Positions 1,240-10,224 are shown, counted from the stretch's first letter. The stretch: DNA of 12,985 nucleotides from a virus (IMGVR_UViG_2537561857_000027); one strand, 5' to 3'. The notes: generated by a model not told the origin, from the letters alone. Numbers and translations: made by a program.

Positions 1240-1413
1240 TCACGGCACACCAGCCACAACACGCGCATAATTTTCAGTGGTCACGCTGTCCGGCTGCGTG
1301 GACTCCTGTTTGCGCTGGCGTTCTCTCTGCTCTTCAATCATGAGGATTAACTCGCGCTCCTCCTGTTCTTCAATAATCCCGTGAATTACCTCTGTTGGTG
1401 AACGGTCGGTCAT
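1240..1413 (-). CDS. Hypothetical small acidic protein, 57 aa (MTDRSPTEVIHGIIEEQEERELILMIEEQRERQRKQESTQPDSVTTENYARVVAGVP)
   Basis: Hand translation; below the 60-aa cut-off of the ORF track. ATG at 1413-1411 is preceded by a G-rich SD-like stretch (GGGGG, about 4 nt spacer); stop at 1240-1242. Its first 30 bp are duplicated at 4390-4419. Flanked on both sides by GGTTACTT(A/T)AAGT(T/A)ACT sites (1210-1227 and 1465-1483). Confidence 0.4.
   Translation of the reverse strand: MTDRSPTEVIHGIIEEQEERELILMIEEQRERQRKQESTQPDSVTTENYARVVAGVP
1382..1411. repeat. 30-bp perfect direct repeat, copy 1 (TGAATTACCTCTGTTGGTGAACGGTCGGTC); partner at 4390-4419
   Basis: Exact 30/30 identity read from the sequence; flanking bases differ on both sides. 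Copy 1 covers codons 2-10 of the 57-aa gene. Confidence 0.9.
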
Positions 1414-1550
1414 CGGTCCCCCTGTGAGTTGCGGTTATGCTCTGTAAAAACGTTCATTTTTGTAGGTTACTTTAAGTAACTTACAAAAAATCGATCATCA
1501 CGTATCGGTTTCGTTTTGCGCTTCCTGTTGCGTTTCGTTTTTGAGAAAAA

Positions 1551-1756
1551 TGCGCATTTTTTTGCGCACTTTTTGAGGTGGTCTATCCCCCTGCAAGCCG
1601 CGTCGTTACTGGCTTTGTGCTGGTGGTCAGCATAATCGATTTTGTGATCGGTTTTATGATCGAATTTGCGCAGTTTTCTGCGCACTTTTCGGGGAATTGT
1701 TGCCCTACGGAATGTGTGCATCAGGAGCGATATGTAACTGACTTTGTAACTGACTT
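1551..1756. promoter_or_regulatory. Operator-like repeat block: two pairs of the palindromic hexamer TGCGCA at 12-bp centre spacing (1551-1556/1563-1568 and 1667-1672/1679-1684), plus two directly adjacent 12-bp repeats TGTAACTGACTT (1733-1744, 1745-1756)
   Basis: Read directly from the sequence. The block sits in a 630-bp stretch (1414-2067) with no convincing ORF, between the restriction gene and the 57-aa gene. A regulatory function is inferred only. Confidence 0.35.
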
Positions 1757-2045
1757 ACTGTCAGCCGCAATCACTACGGGTAATTGCAGATTTCTTACGC
1801 GATTTTAAAATCAGGCCTTCCGTTGTGACATTTCTTTGATGTGCATGAGGTATATTGCTCGCAAGTTATCTTTCGCCCATGTCGTCAATAGTTTTACGGC
1901 CTTAATTAGATCGTTAAACGTATCGACATCGCTCAGTCCGATTTGCTTATTTGGGATTTGTGTTATTGATCAGATCTCATAATCTGGATTGAGTTCCCTC
2001 AAATACGAAGTGATCTACTATTCCGAACAGCTATTTAGTCATCAT

Positions 2046-2069
2046 AACCGGGTTTATCCCGGCTTTTTT
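2046..2069 (+). terminator. Candidate plus-strand intrinsic terminator (CCGGG-ttta-CCCGG, then c + TTTTTT)
   Basis: 5-bp GC stem followed by a T6 run on the plus strand only. Its T-run overlaps the stop codon of the convergent minus-strand restriction gene. It implies plus-strand transcription in 1414-2040. Confidence 0.4.
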
Positions 2070-3144
2070 AATGTTTGATGCATTTTTCCATGAAAGAATC
2101 TAAGAATTGATCGGTTATTCCTTGAGGCTTTCGGCGCTCACAAAGAGAATACAATTCTTCTACGGCAGAGTAAGGAAAAAATTTTGTGTCTAGCTCACGA
2201 AATTGTGGTCTATTTGCAAACTCAATTACTTTTTCTCTATATTCATCTGGAGCTACGATTGTCCATCGTATATCTTGCAGACGGGGAGCATAATCACAGA
2301 AGTTCTTCATACGTGCTAAACCCCTTATTATTCCGGTACTATGCTCGATCTCCATCACGGCAGGCATCAATTTACCATTTCTAAACCAGATGCAATCTAT
2401 CAATCTTGCGCCAGCAATGGCTTCGCTGTAGGAACTTAGGACTTTTTCATTAGACAGACTGTCAATGACACCATCCATTTGAGCGATTGCTTTACCATTG
2501 TATTTTAATCCTCGGTCATTAGCTGCAACCCATGTTCTGTATCCCAGATGATGACCGATTTTTACTAATGCTATCTGGATTTGTGCATGTCTTCTTGATT
2601 CTTCAATAGACATGCCTTCAATTGGACGGATTGTTTCTGAATCAACACTTTGGTATACAACTTCTGTGTTCATCTCTGATATTACAATATTAGTTTTGTA
2701 TTCAGAAAGCTTGCCGTTTTCATGTGGTAAATTCGGTAAGTATATAAGATGCTTGTGGCCTTTTTTAATCGTCTGTTTCGTATTAATAACCTCTAAGCGG
2801 TCGAGTTTACACCAATAAAATTGAGGTGTATGAGCAAGCAAACTTTCAATAACTGAACGAGAGTTATAGCTTGCACCGAATACTCTATCTAAATTGATAG
2901 GCGCATCCTCTTGAATTGCGTTAGCCAAACGCCATAGCATTTGGCTAGATATGCTATCAACTTTGGCATCTCTGAGCGTTTCACCTTTGGTTGGATTGAA
3001 ACGTTTAAAGCGTATTGGGCCTTCTGGTAACTTAATCGAGTCGATAACAATCTTCCCGGCATTACTTTCATTCACATAATCAAACTGCCTGTTTTTGGGT
3101 AGATTTGCTATCGCATTCACAAGATTCATTGCTGTTAAATTCAT
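2068..3144 (-). CDS. Putative Type II restriction endonuclease partner of the adjacent methyltransferase (358 aa); nuclease family not recognisable
   Basis: Long ORF directly downstream of, and overlapping by 65 nt, the C5-methyltransferase gene on the same strand. ATG at 3144 has GGGA 6 nt upstream. The C-terminal region has a possible PD-(D/E)xK-like arrangement (...ARLIDCIWF...PAVMEIEHS...), which is a weak call. The restriction function is inferred from operon context. Confidence 0.5.
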   Translation of the reverse strand: MNLTAMNLVNAIANLPKNRQFDYVNESNAGKIVIDSIKLPEGPIRFKRFNPTKGETLRDAKVDSISSQMLWRLANAIQEDAPINLDRVFGASYNSRSVIESLLAHTPQFYWCKLDRLEVINTKQTIKKGHKHLIYLPNLPHENGKLSEYKTNIVISEMNTEVVYQSVDSETIRPIEGMSIEESRRHAQIQIALVKIGHHLGYRTWVAANDRGLKYNGKAIAQMDGVIDSLSNEKVLSSYSEAIAGARLIDCIWFRNGKLMPAVMEIEHSTGIIRGLARMKNFCDYAPRLQDIRWTIVAPDEYREKVIEFANRPQFRELDTKFFPYSAVEELYSLCERRKPQGITDQFLDSFMEKCIKH

Positions 3145-4219
3145 CTTTTATCCCTAAATGCTCTAATATGGATTTTGCTATGCCTAAAGCCGCAAGGTAA
3201 GGAACACCATTGCCAACAGTTTTAAACATATTTGAAAGAGTCATGTAAGATGGCAATTCGAATTCTTTCGGTAAAGACTGAATGGCAAGTGCTTCTGCAA
3301 CTGTTATTCTACGTGGCTTATATGGATGCAAATGTACTTCATTATTACCGTAAGCAGCTGTTGGAGAATATCTCCAGCGATGAAGACGCTTGTAAGATTT
3401 TTTGCTATCGTCCCCTTCAGCTACAGCTTTAAAGCGAACTAACCCAGCCCTAGCAGTAAACACATGTTTTGCGTTCACATGTTCAGAAACTTTGTTTTTC
3501 CTAAACCAGTAGTCAACAGTTAACTCTTCAGGAAGTGACTCAGGCATTGCCAGTGTTGAGTTCTCAACAAATTCATTCGTAGTTGGCCAATTATGTTCAA
3601 AAGCACTACTATCTGGGTATAATCTTCCACTCCAGTTAAAGATCTTGGTTAGACTTTTATTTTGGAAACCCAACAGAATAATGCGTTCACGGTCTTGCGG
3701 GACTCCGTATTCAATCGAATTTATTAACCTTTCATGAAGGATGTAACCAACGTCCATTAACTGTTTTTTGAGATGCTCAAAAAACTCACGGTGTTTGAGC
3801 GTGCGATAAAGACCTTTGACGTTCTCGAACAAAAAGAAGTCAGGCTTCATCTCAACAATTATATTGATGTAACTTTGAGACAGCTTACCGTTCTCTCCAT
3901 CGCGACCTTTGTTCTTACCTGCAACGGAGAAATCAGGGCACGGTGGGCCACCGATGAAGCCAATTAGTCTTTTTTCTTTCTTGAGAGCTTTAATATTATC
4001 TTTCAACTTATTGTGATCAACTTCCTCGATGCTCTCTTCTGCATATCCAAAACGTGGGATAGGTTTGTTCATCACCGCTCGTGAGTGCTTGTAAGCATCC
4101 ATAAATGGTGGGTGAAATTCATTCACAAAAACCACCTCGTAGCCTGAGTTTTCGAAGCCAAGATCTAGAAAACCTGAGCCGGAAAAGAAAGAGAAGATGG
4201 CGGGTTTAAGTGTGGACAT
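3080..4219 (-). CDS. DNA (cytosine-5)-methyltransferase, Type II R-M modification subunit (379 aa)
   Basis: Canonical m5C-MTase motifs in the correct order: I FSGSGF (FxGxG), IV GGPPCPDFS (catalytic Pro-Cys), VI ENVKGL, VIII QDRERIILLGF, IX RRITVAEALAIQSLP, X GNGVPY. A variable region of about 130 aa lies between VIII and IX. Start ATG at 4219. Confidence 0.9.
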   Translation of the reverse strand: MSTLKPAIFSFFSGSGFLDLGFENSGYEVVFVNEFHPPFMDAYKHSRAVMNKPIPRFGYAEESIEEVDHNKLKDNIKALKKEKRLIGFIGGPPCPDFSVAGKNKGRDGENGKLSQSYINIIVEMKPDFFLFENVKGLYRTLKHREFFEHLKKQLMDVGYILHERLINSIEYGVPQDRERIILLGFQNKSLTKIFNWSGRLYPDSSAFEHNWPTTNEFVENSTLAMPESLPEELTVDYWFRKNKVSEHVNAKHVFTARAGLVRFKAVAEGDDSKKSYKRLHRWRYSPTAAYGNNEVHLHPYKPRRITVAEALAIQSLPKEFELPSYMTLSNMFKTVGNGVPYLAALGIAKSILEHLGIKDEFNSNESCECDSKSTQKQAV

Positions 4220-4248
4220 TTTTTACCTATCGGTGATCGTTGAGTCAT

Positions 4249-4285
4249 GCAAAAACGCCCCTGCATCTTACCAGATGAAAGGGGC
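4249..4285 (-). terminator. Minus-strand intrinsic terminator between ssb and the R-M operon (GCCCCT...AGGGGC stem with inner CATC/GATG pairing, then T-run)
   Basis: Plus-strand 4257-4262 GCCCCT pairs with 4280-4285 AGGGGC; the plus-strand A5 at 4251-4255 is the U-tract after the hairpin on the minus transcript. Confidence 0.5.
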
Positions 4286-4292
4286 ATTGCAA
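4265..4292 (-). promoter_or_regulatory. Candidate sigma70 promoter for the R-M operon: -35 TTGCAA (4292-4287), 16-nt spacer, -10 TAAGAT (4270-4265)
   Basis: Hexamers read on the minus strand. The -10 lies in the loop of the upstream terminator hairpin, so cassette transcripts would start inside or after the hairpin while read-through from ssb is terminated. Confidence 0.4.
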
Positions 4293-4367
4293 CGGGATTG
4301 CAGGCTCTTGTAAAGGTCGTCCGTTGTCATTTTTATGGATATAGTCTTTAATCAACGTGTTCACCTC

Positions 4368-4430
4368 CTATGATGTGTTTAAGGTTGCTTGAATTACCTC
4401 TGTTGGTGAACGGTCGGTCTGCTGGTTCAT
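4368..4430 (-). pseudogene. Truncated duplicate (20 codons, MNQQTDRSPTEVIQATLNTS) of the 5' end of the 57-aa gene at 1240-1413
   Basis: Shares the 30-bp repeat and the peptide TDRSPTEVI with the full-length gene, then diverges to a stop at 4368-4370. Its ATG lies 13 nt after the ssb stop. Confidence 0.5.
4390..4419. repeat. 30-bp perfect direct repeat, copy 2; partner at 1382-1411
   Basis: Exact identity to 1382-1411. Confidence 0.9.
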
Positions 4431-4443
4431 GTTGTGCTGTCAT

Positions 4444-4893
4444 TCAGAACGGAATATCGTCAGAGAACGGGTCATCACCTCCCGCTGGTGGCTGATTTCC
4501 CTGCTGTCCGGTCTGTCGTTTTGCTCTTTCCAGTGCTTCAGTCGCCTTCCCCTGTTGCCCCCGCTTCCCGCCAGGGCGCACCGAACGGGCACTGATTACG
4601 CTGTCAGCGATAACCTGCCAGCCCTGCCGTGTTTCCCCGTTCTGTCCGGTCCACTGGCTGATCTGCATGTTACCCGCCACGCTGATAAGGTCGCCTTTTT
4701 CATGTCTCGCCAGCGCGTCGGCCTGCTTACCAAATGCCAGGACTGATAGCCATAACGTCGCCTGTCCGTCCTGTGCCTGACTGCATGGCAGTGATACCGC
4801 CATACGCGCCAGCGTCATCGGTGTGCCCTTGCTGGTCTGTTTTACCTGCGGGTCGTCCACCAGCCGCCCGTAAGCTGCAATCTGTGCTGTCAT
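4444..4893 (-). CDS. ssb: Single-stranded DNA-binding protein (SSB), 149 aa
   Basis: Gly/Gln/Pro-rich linker and the hallmark acidic C-terminal tail ...GGDDPFSDDIPF (E. coli SSB ends DDDIPF). AAGGAG lies 8 nt upstream of the ATG. Start overlaps the stop of the upstream gene (ATGA). Confidence 0.85.
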   Translation of the reverse strand: MTAQIAAYGRLVDDPQVKQTSKGTPMTLARMAVSLPCSQAQDGQATLWLSVLAFGKQADALARHEKGDLISVAGNMQISQWTGQNGETRQGWQVIADSVISARSVRPGGKRGQQGKATEALERAKRQTGQQGNQPPAGGDDPFSDDIPF

Positions 4894-5306
4894 GGTCTGC
4901 GCTCCTTGTTCCGGTACTCCTGGATAATCCCCATTGTCATATCGAATAAATCACATGCCGCTTTTTCTGCATCTTCCGCTTTCAGGTCATACAGCGTCAT
5001 GAAATGGTGAGCGATTGCCCGTGCGGATCTTTTGCTGTTTGCTGAATATTTCTCATAGATTTTTTCTGCCCGCTCTTCAATATCCCGCCGGAACTCTTCA
5101 CGTTCAAACAGGTCACGGTGTATCAACATCAGCGAATCATTCAGCCATGTCACATCGGCGTATACCGTTCGCTTCCAGACAATCAGGATCGGGATATGTT
5201 TTTCATCGCAGTGATGCAGATGTTCGTCAGGTATATAAAGCGTGGCTCTGCCTCGTACCGATACGAACCTCACAACAGATTCCGTTTCACTTGTTTTTTT
5301 GATCAT
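4890..5306 (-). CDS. Hypothetical protein, 138 aa, translationally coupled to ssb
   Basis: The track ORF 4890..5435 runs back into the origin iterons, giving an RRLRQLRQLRRLRR artefact. The internal ATG at 5306 has a strong SD (AAGGAG, 7-nt spacer), so the start is placed there. Confidence 0.6.
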   Translation of the reverse strand: MIKKTSETESVVRFVSVRGRATLYIPDEHLHHCDEKHIPILIVWKRTVYADVTWLNDSLMLIHRDLFEREEFRRDIEERAEKIYEKYSANSKRSARAIAHHFMTLYDLKAEDAEKAACDLFDMTMGIIQEYRNKERRP

Positions 5307-5367
5307 GAATCGTCTCCTTCCAGGCATCACATCATTCACACGCTTTATATATATAGGAAAAACGTGT

Positions 5368-5683
5368 CGCCTCAGTCGCCTCAGTTGCCTCAGTTGCCTC
5401 AAACGTCTTAACGTATTGATTTGATTAATAATCACAAAAAAATTGAGGCGACATCATGTCGATTTGAGGCAACAATAGGGGGTATTTGAGGCAACATCAC
5501 GTTGGTTCCGTTCAGACAAACAAAACCTGTCAGCCGTGTTGCCTCAAAATGGGCAGTTGTTGCCTCAAAATGGGTAATTGTTGCCTCAAAATGAGCAATT
5601 GTTGCCTCAGTAAAAACAGAAATAAAACATATAAATCAATCACATATATATATTTATTACTGTTTGAGGCAACTGAGGCAACA
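5368..5683. repeat. Iteron-type replication origin: at least 13 copies of the 9-mer GTTGCCTCA / TGAGGCAAC in both orientations, plus an AT-rich stretch (5611-5662)
   Basis: Four tandem 9-mers at 5368-5403; three inverted copies at 5444-5496; four copies at exact 21-bp spacing (5539, 5560, 5581, 5602); two inverted copies at 5666-5683. The array lies immediately downstream of the replication protein gene. Confidence 0.8.
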
Positions 5684-5707
5684 TTTTTTCATCTTATATA
5701 CGCGTAG

Positions 5708-7846
5708 TTAATCGCTTCCCTCCTCATCGTGATTAGCGAACAACATCCCGTAGGCCCATAATTGCGCTCCATTAAGGTTCTTAAGGCGTGGGGTCTTGAT
5801 TTTCCATCCTCTCCCGCTCTCTGGTCGTTTCAGCATTCCAGCTTCGTGGAGTATTTTTGCAACGGTATCCTTGTTGAAGCCTTCCGCTACTTTCGATTTA
5901 AACGGCTCCGATAATACGTAAAACAACAATGGTTCATCGTAACGGCTTCCCGAATCCCTGTAGCCGTACAGCTCAGAAATCGGCAGGCTGGCTGGGTCAT
6001 AATCAACGGGCGCAAAACGGCTCATGCCGTAGGCAGCAAGAAACGCCTCTGCCTGCTCAATGATCTGTTTGTGTTCCTTGTTGCCCGTGCCAAATTCTTT
6101 TACCCAGGCATTAAATACATACTGAATTGCATCGCGGCATTCCTGCACGGACCAGCCAGTTACATGACCGGAAAGCACAAGCGCGGCCTCCAGTATGGAG
6201 AAACGTTCACCCACGCGGTGGACCTGCTCACCGTAATTGTCTGGAATGATATTTCGCCAGCGTGCACGGCTCTCTCTAACCGCGTCCTTAGCTTCCTGCT
6301 GGTTCTCCGCAAGCCATTTAATCCACTCACGCCCCGCTGCGCCGTGGTTTTCTTGCCATGCCGCCTTCAATGCGTCAGCGTGATCCTTTCCGTTGCTGTA
6401 TTCGTGTAACTGCGTGGCTTTTTGAATCGGGATATTGAGCAGGCGCACAAGTTGCCCGACCTTAACTTTTATCCCCGACGTTTTGAGGTATGTTTCGATA
6501 TCCACCTCTCCGGTGCTGATAGCAACGGTCCGCCAGTTTTTCAGCTCTCTGTTGCCGCCGTCCTTTGCCCCCTGTAATTTTCCGAATCCATTGAACAAAG
6601 TGTATGAGGATACGTACACGTCACGGGGGCTTCCTGCCTGCCCTATCTCGTCCAGTGGAAGGAGTCCGTGATTGTGTGCTTCTGCTTCGTTAGCTATCCC
6701 CAGCGCCGTTCCGTACCAGGTTAATCGCAGCGCCTCAGGATCGCCCCACAAGCTCGACGCGATGCTCTGCGTTGTGGTCTTGCCTGCTGTGGATTGCTCG
6801 AAAAAATGCACGCCAAAACCATCAGCGCCTGTCAGCCCGACTAATGGCGCGGATAATGACGTCGCTATACCCAGCATCATGAACGGATTGCCACCAGCCA
6901 GCCGCGCCACGCTGTCGCGCCAGCTTTCCGCCGTTCCTGCCACGGAATAACCGTTAATCGCGGCACTTTTTCCGGTAAACAAAACGGGCTTGTCAGATTC
7001 GCCGATAACCGTACCGTCCGGCATGATGTACGCGCCAAAATGCCAGCCAGCCTTCGGGCTTAAGTGCCATTCCTCATGCTGTCCGCCTAACTGCATCCAG
7101 TCAGCCAGGGGGATCCTGTGTTTTCCGTTTGTCGTGACTTTAAGCCCGTTGGCTTTCAGTAATCGCCAGCCGTCAGTGTCGCCTATTCCGCAGCAAGGCA
7201 CAGCCATAGTGACAAGCCGATTTGTTGTCGAATCTGTCCAGCGCATCACGCGGTAATGCTCGTTACCAATGACACCTGAACCGAGTAATTCAACGGAAGA
7301 ACACAGCCATTCGAACGGACGGATAATTTCGCCAGATTGCTTATCAACCTTTGGCGTCACCCAGTAAACGCCATCAGGACGGCATTCAACGCGGGGTTTT
7401 AATTCGTCATCATAATTTCCGGTGAAATTTGTCTTTGCCGGAAGATTGATCACCAGGCAGTTGCCGCGTTCCGCATCATCCTTCAGTCCAGCCATGCGCG
7501 GTGTCCAGTCCTCCGGCTGCTGGTCAACAAAGCCGCTGTAGCAGCGTGCCTCCTTTACACCCGCCACCGCAAGCAGTGTTGCTATCTGTAAAAGTGCTGT
7601 CTCTGATATTTCACCAGCACGATAAACGCGCACGTAATTGCGCCCTTTATCGATGATTTTCGTGTCTTCCAGGCTCGCCAGTTGTTTCGGTCCAAGAATA
7701 ACGGGCGGTGTATCATCTGCTGCAATATGCTTTCCGGCCCATTCGCTCCACTCTTTCGCATGTGCCCAGGCATCACTACCCGCAAAGATAATGACTTCGG
7801 TCATTTTGTCTTTCGGCTGTTTTTTTAAATTCGGTGCGCTTTTCAT
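5708..7846 (-). CDS. Satellite replication initiator, primase/helicase-like (pri-rep), 712 aa
   Basis: Large ORF adjacent to the iteron array. N-terminal region (MTEVIIFAGSDAWAHAKEW...) resembles Toprim/primase-type domains; the central region has a P-loop-like GKT segment (EQSTAGKTTTQS). The domain call is from pattern memory only. Start ATG overlaps the stop of the upstream gene (ATGA). Confidence 0.75.
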   Translation of the reverse strand: MKSAPNLKKQPKDKMTEVIIFAGSDAWAHAKEWSEWAGKHIAADDTPPVILGPKQLASLEDTKIIDKGRNYVRVYRAGEISETALLQIATLLAVAGVKEARCYSGFVDQQPEDWTPRMAGLKDDAERGNCLVINLPAKTNFTGNYDDELKPRVECRPDGVYWVTPKVDKQSGEIIRPFEWLCSSVELLGSGVIGNEHYRVMRWTDSTTNRLVTMAVPCCGIGDTDGWRLLKANGLKVTTNGKHRIPLADWMQLGGQHEEWHLSPKAGWHFGAYIMPDGTVIGESDKPVLFTGKSAAINGYSVAGTAESWRDSVARLAGGNPFMMLGIATSLSAPLVGLTGADGFGVHFFEQSTAGKTTTQSIASSLWGDPEALRLTWYGTALGIANEAEAHNHGLLPLDEIGQAGSPRDVYVSSYTLFNGFGKLQGAKDGGNRELKNWRTVAISTGEVDIETYLKTSGIKVKVGQLVRLLNIPIQKATQLHEYSNGKDHADALKAAWQENHGAAGREWIKWLAENQQEAKDAVRESRARWRNIIPDNYGEQVHRVGERFSILEAALVLSGHVTGWSVQECRDAIQYVFNAWVKEFGTGNKEHKQIIEQAEAFLAAYGMSRFAPVDYDPASLPISELYGYRDSGSRYDEPLLFYVLSEPFKSKVAEGFNKDTVAKILHEAGMLKRPESGRGWKIKTPRLKNLNGAQLWAYGMLFANHDEEGSD

Positions 7847-8142
7847 TTCTTGCCCCTGAATGCGTTAATCATGTTTTTCATCTTTCGGATGTTCGCCTCT
7901 GCTTTTGCGTTGCTGGCTGGCTTACCGCGCGGCACGGACTGCACCAGAGAAAAATCACGCGCGAACTGATACAGTGGCATTACGCAGTCATAGTCATAGC
8001 CTTCACGGCGGTAGGCGATACGGCGTTCTCTCACGCTGATAATTGTCACGATGCCGCCGTACTTATCGCGGTAAATATCCCCGCGCATAAATTCAGGTTG
8101 AGCTTTGCCACTGGCAGTTAAGCCAGAATTTTTTGATGTCAT
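7843..8142 (-). CDS. Hypothetical protein, 99 aa, translationally coupled to pri-rep
   Basis: ATG at 8142 with GGAGA 8 nt upstream; stop overlaps the pri-rep start. Confidence 0.6.
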   Translation of the reverse strand: MTSKNSGLTASGKAQPEFMRGDIYRDKYGGIVTIISVRERRIAYRREGYDYDCVMPLYQFARDFSLVQSVPRGKPASNAKAEANIRKMKNMINAFRGKK

Positions 8143-8198
8143 TGAGTTAATCTCCTGAAGGAGTTGTCTTAATCTTTATTTCCCGTTTATTTTTGCCG

Positions 8199-8390
8199 TT
8201 ATTGTTCGCCGCGTTTTTCTTCCTCCGTCATTAACCACACCGCCACATTGCTGGAAAGCTGTTTGATAAGTCCCGCAATAACAGAAAGGTCATGGTCGTC
8301 TATTTCTTCGTGGTTGCGTTCAATCATGCGGCTGATTACTTCGACCTGTTGCGCTTTCAGTGAGGCTTCTGCCAGTGTCATTTCCTGCAT
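8199..8390 (-). CDS. Hypothetical protein, 63 aa
   Basis: ATG overlaps the stop of the upstream 61-aa ORF (TAATG); G-rich SD-like stretch upstream. Confidence 0.5.
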   Translation of the reverse strand: MQEMTLAEASLKAQQVEVISRMIERNHEEIDDHDLSVIAGLIKQLSSNVAVWLMTEEEKRGEQ

Positions 8391-8575
8391 TACTGCACCC
8401 CCTTAATTTCATGAACGGCGTGGATAATTACGCCGGATAAACCGGCTTTAGCTGATTTGTTAATTACTGTGCTGATTGCAGCCTGGACGTTTTCGGCCTT
8501 CACGTTCTGCGTGATGCCAACGGTATAGCCGCGTGCATTAACGGCACGGGAAAAAACACGGAAGGTTTTAAGCAT
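8390..8575 (-). CDS. Hypothetical protein, 61 aa
   Basis: Strong SD: GGAGG with 6-nt spacer before the ATG at 8575. Confidence 0.55.
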   Translation of the reverse strand: MLKTFRVFSRAVNARGYTVGITQNVKAENVQAAISTVINKSAKAGLSGVIIHAVHEIKGVQ

Positions 8576-8738
8576 GAGTCACCTCCTGACGGATACGGGC
8601 GACAAAAATCAGATGTGCGTGCGGCAGCTGCGCGCGTGCTTCGCGCTCAGTGGCAGCGGTAACGGTGAATATTGCAATGCTACCTGTCAGGCACTGCATA
8701 AAGCGCCAGACAAAGTAAGGGCGTGCGGATACAGCCAT
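8568..8738 (-). CDS. Hypothetical small protein, 56 aa, with a hydrophobic core (LTGSIAIFTVTAAT); proposed real 3' part of the 504-aa track ORF
   Basis: Internal ATG at 8738 is preceded by GAGGAG with an 8-nt spacer, and codon usage improves from here to the stop. Its end overlaps the start of the next gene by 8 nt. Start assignment is by inference. Confidence 0.35.
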   Translation of the reverse strand: MAVSARPYFVWRFMQCLTGSIAIFTVTAATEREARAQLPHAHLIFVARIRQEVTHA

Positions 8739-8903
8739 GTGAAAGGCTCCTCTGACTTTGGGATTATACCCACCGCCGGAGGTGGTAAGCTCGCTGGCGG
8801 TGGACTGTACAGGGTTACCACAACTGGCGTTAGAGGAAACCAGCCCGACCGAAGTCGGCCCCATACAGCCCACCATTGTTGAGGTGTGCGTGTGCGCCGA
8901 TAC

Positions 8904-8924
8904 AAAAAAAGACGCTGGCGCGTC
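8904..8924 (-). terminator. Minus-strand intrinsic terminator (GACGC-tggc-GCGTC followed by T7 on the minus transcript)
   Basis: Plus-strand A7 at 8904-8910 precedes the hairpin at 8911-8924; an outer CGATACA/TGTATCG stem (8897-8903 with 8926-8932) encloses it. Confidence 0.5.
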
Positions 8925-9207
8925 GTGTATCGCCTCTAACTCCAGCGGGGTGGTAATCCCGATCCCCGTTTTATAAGGGATAGCCTCAGTATATGCCGCT
9001 TTTTTGCTTAAGTGGTCGGATGTGTTGCGAGAGAAGTTTGTGCGAAAAATACCTGCGTTTTCTTTGAAAGCACATAATAACATCACGTTATTTATGTTTA
9101 TGCAGTGTGTCGCAAAGCGACCTGAATCATCACGCAAATTACAACCATAAAAAATACCTGCGCTGTGATATGAGGTACTACAGCGCACCGCTTTACGGGT
9201 ACAGACA

Positions 9208-9387
9208 ATGACAAATGAAGAACTACAGGAAATCGCATTATCCATACTTGAGCGACAGCGCGAAAAAGTACGCCTGGAACGCGAGTCTTTGCTTAATCCC
9301 TCTCCTCTCACCAGACCAAAACGATTTGCGCTTGAGGCATTTCTGGACAAATACCCACGGCGATTAATCTCGCCTAAAAACCGATAG
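9208..9387 (+). CDS. Small basic/helical protein A, 59 aa (MTNEELQEIALSILERQREKVRLERESLLNPSPLTRPKRFALEAFLDKYPRRLISPKNR)
   Basis: Hand translation; below the track cut-off. Shares a C-terminal motif K(R/K)FALE(A/E)FL(D/R)KYPRRL...KNR with ORF B, and a similar 45-nt upstream region. Composition is protein-like. The coding strand is not proven (see findings). Confidence 0.4.
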   Translation: MTNEELQEIALSILERQREKVRLERESLLNPSPLTRPKRFALEAFLDKYPRRLISPKNR

Positions 9388-9483
9388 CGATCCGCTTTTG
9401 CTTCTCTGACTCCATAAAACGAATAACAACCATCAGCGCCGTGGTGTGAGGTGCTGCGTCGCTCCGCTGTACAGGAAATAAGT

Positions 9484-9762
9484 ATGGATTTACCACCAGA
9501 AGATGAGAAATTTTTACGACAACTACAACACCAACTACTCATGGATGCCATTGTCGAGCAGCAAACAGGGAGCAGCCCCATTGATTCATCGCTGAATAAA
9601 AAGGCCGCTTCCCGTTTTATTGAAAACAGGATAAGACGAGGAAAAACATGTGACGACGAGTCAAAGGCATCGCATACAAGAGATAAAAAATTTGCACTTG
9701 AAGAGTTTCTCAGGAAATACCCACGGCGGCTAAAAGCAACCAAAAATCGCCCGCCAGGCTGA
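9484..9762 (+). CDS. Small protein B, 92 aa, paralogue of protein A
   Basis: The track ORF 9451..9762 begins at GTG; the ATG at 9484 has AGGAA 6 nt upstream. C-terminal motif shared with protein A. Confidence 0.45.
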   Translation: MDLPPEDEKFLRQLQHQLLMDAIVEQQTGSSPIDSSLNKKAASRFIENRIRRGKTCDDESKASHTRDKKFALEEFLRKYPRRLKATKNRPPG

Positions 9763-9765
9763 TAG

Positions 9766-10076
9766 CATTGTCCACCAGCCTCAGATATGGCATTGTGGAT
9801 AATGCGCTTGATTTCCTTTATCTCCACTGGCGACCCTTTCGTGGTCGCCTTTGTTTTGCCTGCCATTCCTGCATCATGCGGATATTCGCGCCGTACAGGG
9901 CCACCAGCGCGATAATTTGATAAAGCCTCCTTCTGATAATGCTTAACGTGTTTCATGCGCTCAGCGGCGAAATGGCTCACGATATGGCGCATGTAATCAG
10001 CATGGTTGATGCTCACCTGTGCGAACTTATCCGCAGTATCGATGTACAGGGCGGCAGCGTTGCGGATGTCAGGCAT
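9766..10076 (-). CDS. Hypothetical protein (MPDIRNAAALYIDTADKFAQVSINHADYMRHIVSHFAAERMKHVKHYQKEAL...); start well supported, 3' end unresolved
   Basis: ATG at 10076 with GGAG about 9 nt upstream; it overlaps the stop of the upstream 51-aa gene by 8 nt (ATGCCTGA). The first 50 or so codons use E. coli-preferred codons (ATC, CTG, CGC, AAC, TTC). The frame has no stop until 8568. The lower coordinate given here is arbitrary. Confidence 0.3.
9829..9858 (+). terminator. Plus-strand intrinsic terminator (GGCGACC-ctttcgt-GGTCGCC followed by TTTGTTTTG)
   Basis: Perfect 7-bp GC-rich stem followed by a T-rich tract, about 70 bp downstream of ORF B. Confidence 0.6.
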
Positions 10077-10224
10077 GTTCACGTTCTCCCAGGCGACGGA
10101 CCAGCCAGCGTTGGGCTAATTCGGTGAGACGTTCTTTACGTTCTGGCGTTGGCATATCCATATCCAGTAGCGCACAGTTACGGCTTTCCAGATACGCGAG
10201 CAACGCCAGTTGATCAGCGGTCAT
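10069..10224 (-). CDS. Hypothetical small protein, 51 aa (MTADQLALLAYLESRNCALLDMDMPTPERKERLTELAQRWLVRRLGEREHA)
   Basis: Internal ATG at 10224 overlaps the stop of the Rha-family gene (ATGA); the track's longer 81-aa version would overlap that gene. Confidence 0.45.
   Translation of the reverse strand: MTADQLALLAYLESRNCALLDMDMPTPERKERLTELAQRWLVRRLGEREHA

Follow-up and report, generated by a model that had tools for sequence, protein, structure and literature searches.

A Type II restriction-modification module in place of the ProQ/FinO-PerC genes of a PICI-like island, with a 30-bp direct repeat as the probable scar of an illegitimate junction

The restriction-modification locus and its 30-bp repeat

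The DNA analysed here (IMGVR_UViG_2537561857_000027; 12,985 bp, the whole of which is referred to as the window) originates from a genomic island of Escherichia coli related to phage-inducible chromosomal islands (PICIs). Between the ssb gene and a small acidic gene of this island lies a Type II restriction-modification (R-M) operon, enclosed by two copies of a 30-bp sequence, and it is the origin of this arrangement that is considered below. All genes of the region are on the minus strand. The features of the locus are as follows (ORF, open reading frame; IS, insertion sequence; UTR, untranslated region).

1240-1413, minus strand: small acidic gene of 57 aa (MTDRSPTEVIHGII...), an intact ORF and a conserved member of the island family
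1382-1411: 30-mer copy B (native), nt 3-32 of the 57-aa small gene
1414-1701: family-conserved intergenic region, 5' of the small gene, with homology to all nine related islands
1702-1921: orphan segment X, 220 bp; among E. coli genomes, plasmids and phages, matched only in three genomes bearing the same island
1922-2039, minus strand: IS630-family left-end remnant (inverted repeat and 5' UTR), truncated at 1922 after about 120 bp
2036-4352, minus strand: R-M core module, a unit recurring in other genomic contexts
2068-3144, minus strand: R, 358 aa, NmeDI-related Type II restriction endonuclease (PADLOC REase_II)
3080-4219, minus strand: M, 379 aa, C5 cytosine DNA methyltransferase (PF00145), overlapping R by 65 nt
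4250-4292, minus strand: 5' control region of the R-M operon (promoter-like element and overlapping hairpin), conserved in four contexts
4353-4389: 37-nt orphan between the R-M core and copy A, absent from the core copy located near nanC (L006)
4368-4430, minus strand: 20-codon chimeric ORF, translated as MNQQTDRSPTEVIQATLNTS and a stop, its ATG 13 nt past the ssb TGA
4390-4419: 30-mer copy A (ectopic), inside the 20-codon ORF near ssb
4444-4893, minus strand: ssb (PF00436, 4.8e-16), the final backbone gene ahead of the junction

A repeat search of the window confirmed the two identical 30-mers reported in the initial annotation: the sequence TGAATTACCTCTGTTGGTGAACGGTCGGTC is present, letter for letter, at positions 1382-1411 and 4390-4419. 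Approximately 1e-10 exact 30-bp matches are expected by chance in 13 kb. The copies are in direct orientation and spaced by 3,008 bp, with both R and M between them, and no similarity was found past either end of the two 30-mers; the repeat is exactly 30 bp long.

Copy B lies, as originally described, at the 5' end of the intact 57-aa gene. The homologues encoded by relatives have 53 aa, and comparison with PHROGs yielded only a weak match (phrog_1561). The small gene of one related island (L002) holds the identical 30-mer, and none of the sampled relatives has it at the ssb-proximal position of copy A. The ORF containing copy A had been regarded as a 20-codon remnant of the same gene start, located 13 nt after the ssb stop codon. 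The position and the ORF were upheld by our analysis, and its derivation had to be revised. The ORF reads MNQQT followed by the small-protein residues DRSPTEVI, and the N-terminus of the ProQ/FinO proteins of relatives is MNQQTTQQD; it is therefore a chimera of the ProQ/FinO and small-gene starts, composed, in order, of a ProQ/FinO start (ATGAACCAGCAGACC), small-gene nt 7-32, seven foreign codons and a stop.

The initial annotation presupposed that the 30-mer is not a common genomic repeat, and this proved correct, the exact sequence being carried by only 6 of 5,426 E. coli genomes. Two copies each are found in three R-M islands and one copy each in three close relatives, the native copy always being part of the small gene. 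Since the exact 30-mer is this rare, the ectopic copy carries the allele of this lineage itself, and would most likely have been templated within it.

The methyltransferase M matches PF00145 over residues 8-352 of 379 (3.7e-53), TIGR00675 (1e-47; 163 bits against a cutoff of 100.65) and the PADLOC profile MTase_II (3.1e-164), and its translation contains the motifs GGPPCPDFS and FENVKG (PPC and ENV, respectively). The endonuclease R aligns by residues 2-356 with positions 5-350 of the 351-position PADLOC REase_II profile PDLC03534 (7.3e-124), and had no match in Pfam or NCBIfam; a copy of R with 94.5% identity was labelled by PGAP as “type II restriction enzyme NmeDI-related protein”. The locus thus combines a complete-domain methyltransferase with an adjacent, separately encoded endonuclease homologue, as is characteristic of Type II systems. 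The dN/dS values for R were 0.054 relative to the nanC-context copy and 0.036 relative to the copy of Trabulsiella (L007), and that for M was 0.10 relative to the nanC-context copy. Both genes are intact and under purifying selection, which lends indirect support to the putative sequence-specific cleavage and restriction of unmodified phage. Matches of M to the PADLOC profile DruM initially brought Druantia into consideration; this identity was rejected, as the MTase_II match is stronger and the other Druantia genes are absent. The sequence RCCGGY occurs twice in the 12,985 bp, which contain 37 CCGG sites (approximately nine would be expected with random flanking bases), a count that is left uninterpreted here.

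Related islands and the extent of the foreign DNA

Nine related islands (L002-L005 and L010-L014) were retrieved. In every one of them a gene for an RNA chaperone of the ProQ/FinO family, confirmed as ProQ by PF04352, starts 16 nt after ssb. Between one and three copies of a gene for the regulator PerC come next, and the conserved intergenic region separates these from the small gene and the antiterminator gene Q; in two of the nine islands the place of the small gene is taken by genes encoding a MazF/PemK toxin (L010) or a YeeE transporter (L013). A sensitive search with a query covering the junction at the ssb end gave a consistent picture, with ssb and ProQ/FinO annotated in 38 of the 39 non-self matches listed. 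The ProQ/PerC genes of the relatives occupy 1.9-2.7 kb at the position held here by R-M, which is found at this position in this lineage only (9/9 relatives have ProQ/FinO-PerC). Since every sampled relative has ProQ/FinO followed by PerC in the interval between ssb and the small gene, this interval is not a free slot. The diverse, unrelated cargo with breakpoints in the flanking genes that marks hotspots of the type described by Rousset 2022 (PMC9122126) was not observed at this locus. Neither did the alignment of related islands bear out the variable interval with breakpoints at the 30-mer that had been anticipated: all relatives have ProQ/FinO-PerC, and the right edge lies at about 1701.

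Homology to the relatives on the ssb side stops at position 4416, as determined in four independent comparisons. Both proQ (CAGCAGACC) and the small gene (ATGACC) contain the minus-strand tetranucleotide GACC found at 4416-4419 (plus strand GGTC), and the left joint reads from ProQ/FinO codon 5, through the 4-nt GACC microhomology and a 26-nt copy of the small gene, into foreign DNA. On the right side, all nine relatives lose homology at 1689-1701, approximately 290 bp upstream of the intact 30-mer. Because the relatives align with each other beyond 1701, this breakpoint is private to the lineage studied. The foreign DNA accordingly comprises positions 1702-4389 (2,688 bp), and since its right edge is located some 290 bp upstream of the intact 30-mer, the two 30-mers are not crossover points between conserved flanks. 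All three junctions are legible at single-base level.

The backbone is itself mosaic. The arm running from ssb to Icd (4416-10030) is 96.8% identical to the island of strain STEC2018-607 (L002), and the best match of the Q/small-gene arm (1-1701) among the 5,426 genomes is at most 92% over 70% of its length. The R-M segment is positioned exactly at the seam of the two arms. A 10-mer, AATTGTTGCC, spanning the right junction (1695-1704) equals an origin-iteron core at 5575-5585, which is not significant alone. It was tried as a second templated filler and rejected, since 13.5% of random sites lie near such repeated 10-mers.

The foreign DNA consists of four pieces. The largest, the R-M core, has a GC content of 39.7%, compared to 49.6% for the backbone, and is 94.6% identical to copies in 21 E. 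coli genomes, where it resides in an unrelated defence island by nanC/nanM, beside a different transposase pseudogene. No direct repeat of at least 12 nt was found flanking the core in the nanC-context copy. Related sequences are present in Trabulsiella (86% identity) and Citrobacter (78%), over positions 2065/2080-4304/4306. A scan of the GTDB species representatives with the R protein detected the R-M core in Trabulsiella, Citrobacter and a metagenome-assembled genome of Bacillota, and no flanks shared by these copies were found. The presence of the module in three other contexts fixes its boundaries, and its low GC content, its copies in other contexts and the low dN/dS values together indicate that it is foreign, modular and selectively maintained. 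The initial annotation of this operon as Type II R-M cargo of an int-alpA-primase island, found here to lie at tRNA-Gly, is supported by the domain matches, and the foreign nature of the segment between the repeats by its GC content and the unrelated contexts of the core.

The stretch 1922-2039 matches, at approximately 78% identity, the ends of IS630-family elements in over 1,000 records, and in one of these (L017) the matching stretch is directly upstream of the transposase start. The IS remnants adjoining the core in the two E. coli contexts were compared as possible parts of one element, which was rejected because they are unrelated past the TA-TAGTCAT core edge. For the remaining two pieces, 4353-4389 and 1702-1921, the search for a donor or intermediate (E. 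coli genomes by sensitive blastn, plasmids, phages, viral and metagenome contigs) returned only copies of the same island. In metagenomes, a 25-mer of the 37-nt orphan matched only the same island (L015 and L016), and in viral contigs it had no match. What had been described as about 630 bp of non-coding DNA next to the operon is in consequence a composite of the conserved region (1414-1701), orphan segment X (1702-1921) and the IS630 remnant (1922-2039).

The control region upstream of M was also inspected. The proposed minus-strand hairpin is real and conserved; it extends, with its U5 tract, over approximately 4287-4250 and has a predicted energy of -22.7 kcal/mol (z = -3.07). The accompanying promoter-like sequence is composed of TTGCAA (4292-4287), a 16-nt spacer and TAAGAT (4270-4265), the -10 element being placed in the hairpin loop and 3' arm. 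Its presence and conservation were verified, and its score is weak: TTGCAA-N16-TAAGAT agrees with the consensus at 8 of 12 positions, falls under the threshold of the promoter scanner and was not called. In an alignment of four contexts, a 60-nt control element is almost invariant and the sequence upstream of the -35 element diverges completely, which assigns the control element to the R-M module. Transcripts entering from the inducible ssb operon would fold into the hairpin and end there, and the predicted promoter of the module would start transcripts inside the hairpin, leading to constitutive R-M expression. It is plausible, as judged from the nucleotide sequence, that the hairpin and promoter insulate R-M from the ssb operon; likewise, a plus-strand terminator predicted by the scanner at the opposite edge of the core (2048-2062) would block antisense entry into it. 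Two short ORFs upstream of M, one of 34 aa (after AGGAGG) and one of 40 aa (4165-4287), were rejected as coding sequences, since the frame is not conserved in the nanC-context copy.

Three complete E. coli genomes contain a locus with 99.8-99.9% identity to the window. In strain S1-KEN-03-A this locus is situated beside tRNA-Gly, between actS and the glycoside hydrolase/ETT2 region. A 19-bp repeat, TTGGAGCGGGCGAAGGGAA, occurs at the 3' end of tRNA-Gly and 13.9 kb away and delimits both ends, which defines an island of approximately 13.9 kb; the window spans all of it except ~750 bp. The island encodes a P4-type integrase (PF00589, PF13356 and PF22022), AlpA (PF05930), a Rha-type regulator, a DUF4222 protein, a DUF927 primase adjoined by iteron-like repeats, ssb and the antiterminator Q. 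An integrase, an AlpA-type regulator and a primase-replicase are thus present in the order conserved in PICIs, integration between att repeats is also PICI-like, and the annotation of the island (L001) contains no structural or lysis genes. No homologue of capsid-morphogenesis or terS/rpp genes was recognised among the scanned ORFs (Pfam, PHROGs and NCBIfam; several small ORFs have no assignment, and ~750 bp of the island lie outside the window), and for this reason “PICI-like” is the limit of the class assignment.

Probable origin of the arrangement

In our opinion, the arrangement is best explained, with a probability of about 0.7, by the replacement of the ProQ/FinO-PerC block with a 2.69-kb foreign mosaic through illegitimate recombination, in which case the 30-bp repeat would be a scar of the junction. 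A self-contained, horizontally mobile Type II R-M module would have entered a PICI-like island at tRNA-Gly, where it may defend both the host and the island against unmethylated DNA. Several routes could lead to this state, and they can be weighted only roughly. Slightly favoured is a single template-switching event, in which 26 nt would have been copied as filler. Almost equal weight is given to an insertion after small-gene nt 32, accompanied by a target duplication of ~320 bp; a deletion at the microhomology would then have removed the DNA between proQ codon 5 and the first of the two small-gene copies. Somewhat behind these stands illegitimate joining to an unsampled sister island, from which both the R-M segment and the divergent right arm would have come; this route stays open because of the mosaic backbone. 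Other routes taken together would make up a small remainder. As a specific mechanism, switching resembling microhomology-mediated break-induced replication or fork stalling and template switching (MMBIR/FoSTeS) in the replicating satellite, which would have left ProQ/FinO at the 4-nt microhomology, copied 26 nt from 3 kb away and jumped to foreign DNA, is conceivable and on balance unlikely.

If R-M DNA had been inserted into an existing fusion of ssb-MNQQ with the small gene, a 30-bp target might have been duplicated; the repeats are indeed perfect, direct and enclose R and M, and R-M units with long flanking direct repeats have been documented (Furuta et al. 2010, PMC2853133). This event would require an empty site, which was not encountered: a synthetic fusion query was covered to at least 80% in 0 of the 5,426 E. 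coli genomes, and Campbell-type integration at the 30-mer is for the same reason left without a precursor. The insert would moreover have to include ~290 bp of family-conserved DNA (1414-1701), so it could not simply be foreign DNA. Furuta et al. require a duplication of more than 30 bp, and the present one is 30 bp exactly; in their scheme the locus is a substitution, as over 1 kb of other genes occupies the site in the relatives. The same core is also found in the nanC context with no flanking repeat. With regard to this last point, the initial annotation had named related islands carrying the cassette without the repeat as evidence against its proposal; the core is repeat-free elsewhere, yet every island carrying the cassette has the repeat. 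Taken together, these observations make target duplication improbable.

The explanation originally put forward, that the interval is a cargo slot swapped by homologous recombination in conserved flanks (the 30-mers being the footprint of crossovers), appears more doubtful still. Some variation does exist among relatives (one to three PerC copies, an extra hypothetical gene), recombination partners are available, since related islands occupy several places per genome (median 2, maximum 10), and the backbone is mosaic (left arm 96.8%, right arm 76-92%). However, a double crossover in the flanks leaves no duplication, and the breakpoints do not coincide with the 30-mer, the right one being at about 1701 and the left one inside proQ codon 5, with 4 nt shared. 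The 5' end of the small gene adjoins ssb in no relative and all those sampled keep ProQ/FinO-PerC; as they can be aligned past 1701, there is no family-wide recombination boundary at that point. We consider least probable of all, and hardly credible, that the repeat is functional, serving in programmed or RecA-mediated excision of the R-M cassette or acting in cis as a common regulatory element. At 30 bp the repeat is close to the shortest length used in RecA-dependent recombination in E. coli, the copies are perfectly identical and both are kept in all five known carriers. These carriers are, however, 99.8-99.9% identical, so that the identity of the repeats requires no selection, and the predicted deletion product was found in 0 of the 5,426 genomes. 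The 30-mer has no internal symmetry and corresponds to no more than the coding start of an uncommon allele of the small gene; it does not include the ribosome-binding site and ATG of the small gene, so translational control is not transferred with it.

Illegitimate replacement therefore remains the preferred explanation, and several points weigh against it. Neither an intermediate nor a donor context nor an empty site turned up in the 5,426 E. coli genomes or the metagenome scan, so how many events took place, and in which order, cannot be established. The microhomology at the left joint is merely 4 nt, and the second joint, between small-gene nt 32 and the 37-nt orphan, is not amenable to analysis without the donor sequence. 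The carriers (three genomes, two of them apparently of the same strain, and two metagenome contigs) may all descend from one event (n = 1). Satellite status is inferred from architecture alone, no capsid-redirection or terS/rpp genes having been identified. Finally, the promoter match is weak (8/12), and the functions of R-M, promoter and terminator are predicted ones.

If the template-switching mechanism is correct, the locus would be direct sequence evidence that phage satellites can exchange core accessory genes for defence cargo through a substitution driven by microhomology and nearly neutral in size (2.69 kb gained, 2.3-2.7 kb lost), and not by homologous exchange at hotspot flanks. The locus also gives a reason for caution, since repeat-flanked cargo need not imply homologous exchange of the hotspot type. 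As a natural variant lacking ProQ/PerC and containing R-M, it offers a handle on the roles of those conserved satellite genes.

The surrounding island and known systems

Further features of the island were noted. The family-conserved region 1414-1701 contains two TGCGCA-N7-TGCGCA palindromes (1551-1578 and 1667-1694) followed by T-runs, terminator-like on both strands, and GATC sites are clustered within it. An 84-aa ORF (1467-1721) is probably spurious, since the indels in the alignment of relatives are not multiples of three. Since the region persists in the two relatives in which MazF or YeeE genes replace the small gene, another variable slot may lie downstream of it. A further decayed gene is located between the small gene and Q: in the identical island, PGAP annotates a short piece from the interior of a KilA-N domain protein at 1099-1179.

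An origin-like array was identified between the primase gene and a 181-aa gene (5384-5695). It consists of three to four iterons with 21-nt spacing (TGTTGCCTCAAAATGGG...) and is flanked by perfect 21-nt inverted repeats (5384-5404 and 5662-5682). A 504-aa ORF on the minus strand (8568-10082) is annotated by PGAP as Icd-like, with only its last ~48 residues matching Icd. Two Rfam matches lie within it (8793-8880 and 8905-8981), namely C4 antisense RNA (77.7 bits; gathering threshold 45) and an isrK-like small RNA (48.3 bits; gathering threshold 50), so the ORF is probably an annotation artefact over an RNA immunity region of the P4/P1 type. In one metagenome contig (L016; 2.9x coverage), window position 4966 is joined to 8993 through the 12-nt microhomology ATGCCGCTTTTT (contig positions 1694-1705, equal to window 4955-4966 and 8993-9004), the primase block being lost; the contig may represent a genuine derivative of the R-M island that suffered this deletion, or a chimera produced in assembly.

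Among known R-M systems, the closest in name is NmeDI of Neisseria meningitidis, whose endonuclease, R.NmeDI, has 351 aa, recognises RCCGGY and performs two-sided cleavage (Kwiatek & Piekarowicz 2007, PMC2095814). Both systems pair a C5 methyltransferase with a nuclease of ~350 aa (358 aa for R of the window), and they differ in host and genomic context. The kinship of R is taken from the PGAP label and the PADLOC profile; the site and the two-sided cut are properties of NmeDI itself.

The R-M units surveyed by Furuta, Abe & Kobayashi 2010 (PMC2853133) resemble the present locus in that R and M, on a segment below 20 kb, are enclosed by a direct repeat far longer than a transposon target duplication; the R-M unit of the window is, in addition, linked to an IS fragment and located within a mobile element. 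Of the hallmarks used in that survey, R and M inside the repeat and an insert of less than 20 kb are found here, but a duplication of more than 30 bp and an empty site are not. The locus belongs instead to the “substitution” class: the empty site with a single repeat was not found and relatives hold other genes. It differs further in its ectopic repeat copy, which is joined to the start of another gene, and in that the repeats miss the right edge of the foreign DNA.

The int-alpA-primase layout and PerC genes have been described for E. coli PICIs (PMC11773190, PMC10085698). Gram-negative PICIs include EcCICFT073, EcCIEDL933 and EcCIMP1, and defence cargo is known from satellites (Fillol-Salom 2018, PMC6092414; Rousset 2022, PMC9122126; de Sousa 2023, PMC10085698). 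The present island resembles them in its size of ~14 kb, its int-alpA-primase order, its integration at a tRNA between att repeats, the PerC genes of its relatives, its lack of structural and lysis genes and its anti-phage accessory cargo. It differs in having three of the five SatelliteFinder core components, with no capsid-morphogenesis or terS/rpp homologue identified, and in carrying antiterminator Q and a C4/isrK-type RNA immunity region. Its R-M operon displaced the family-typical ProQ/FinO-PerC genes, outside a recognised variable hotspot.

Since satellite defence cargo and repeat-flanked R-M units, including those with IS fragments, are both established (PMC9122126, PMC10085698, PMC2853133), the locus adds an example and not a concept. 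The type of event is ordinary. What is unusual is that a family ProQ/FinO-PerC block was displaced instead of a variable slot being filled, and that the scar can be resolved down to single nucleotides, which makes this island an exceptionally legible case of a defence module entering a satellite.

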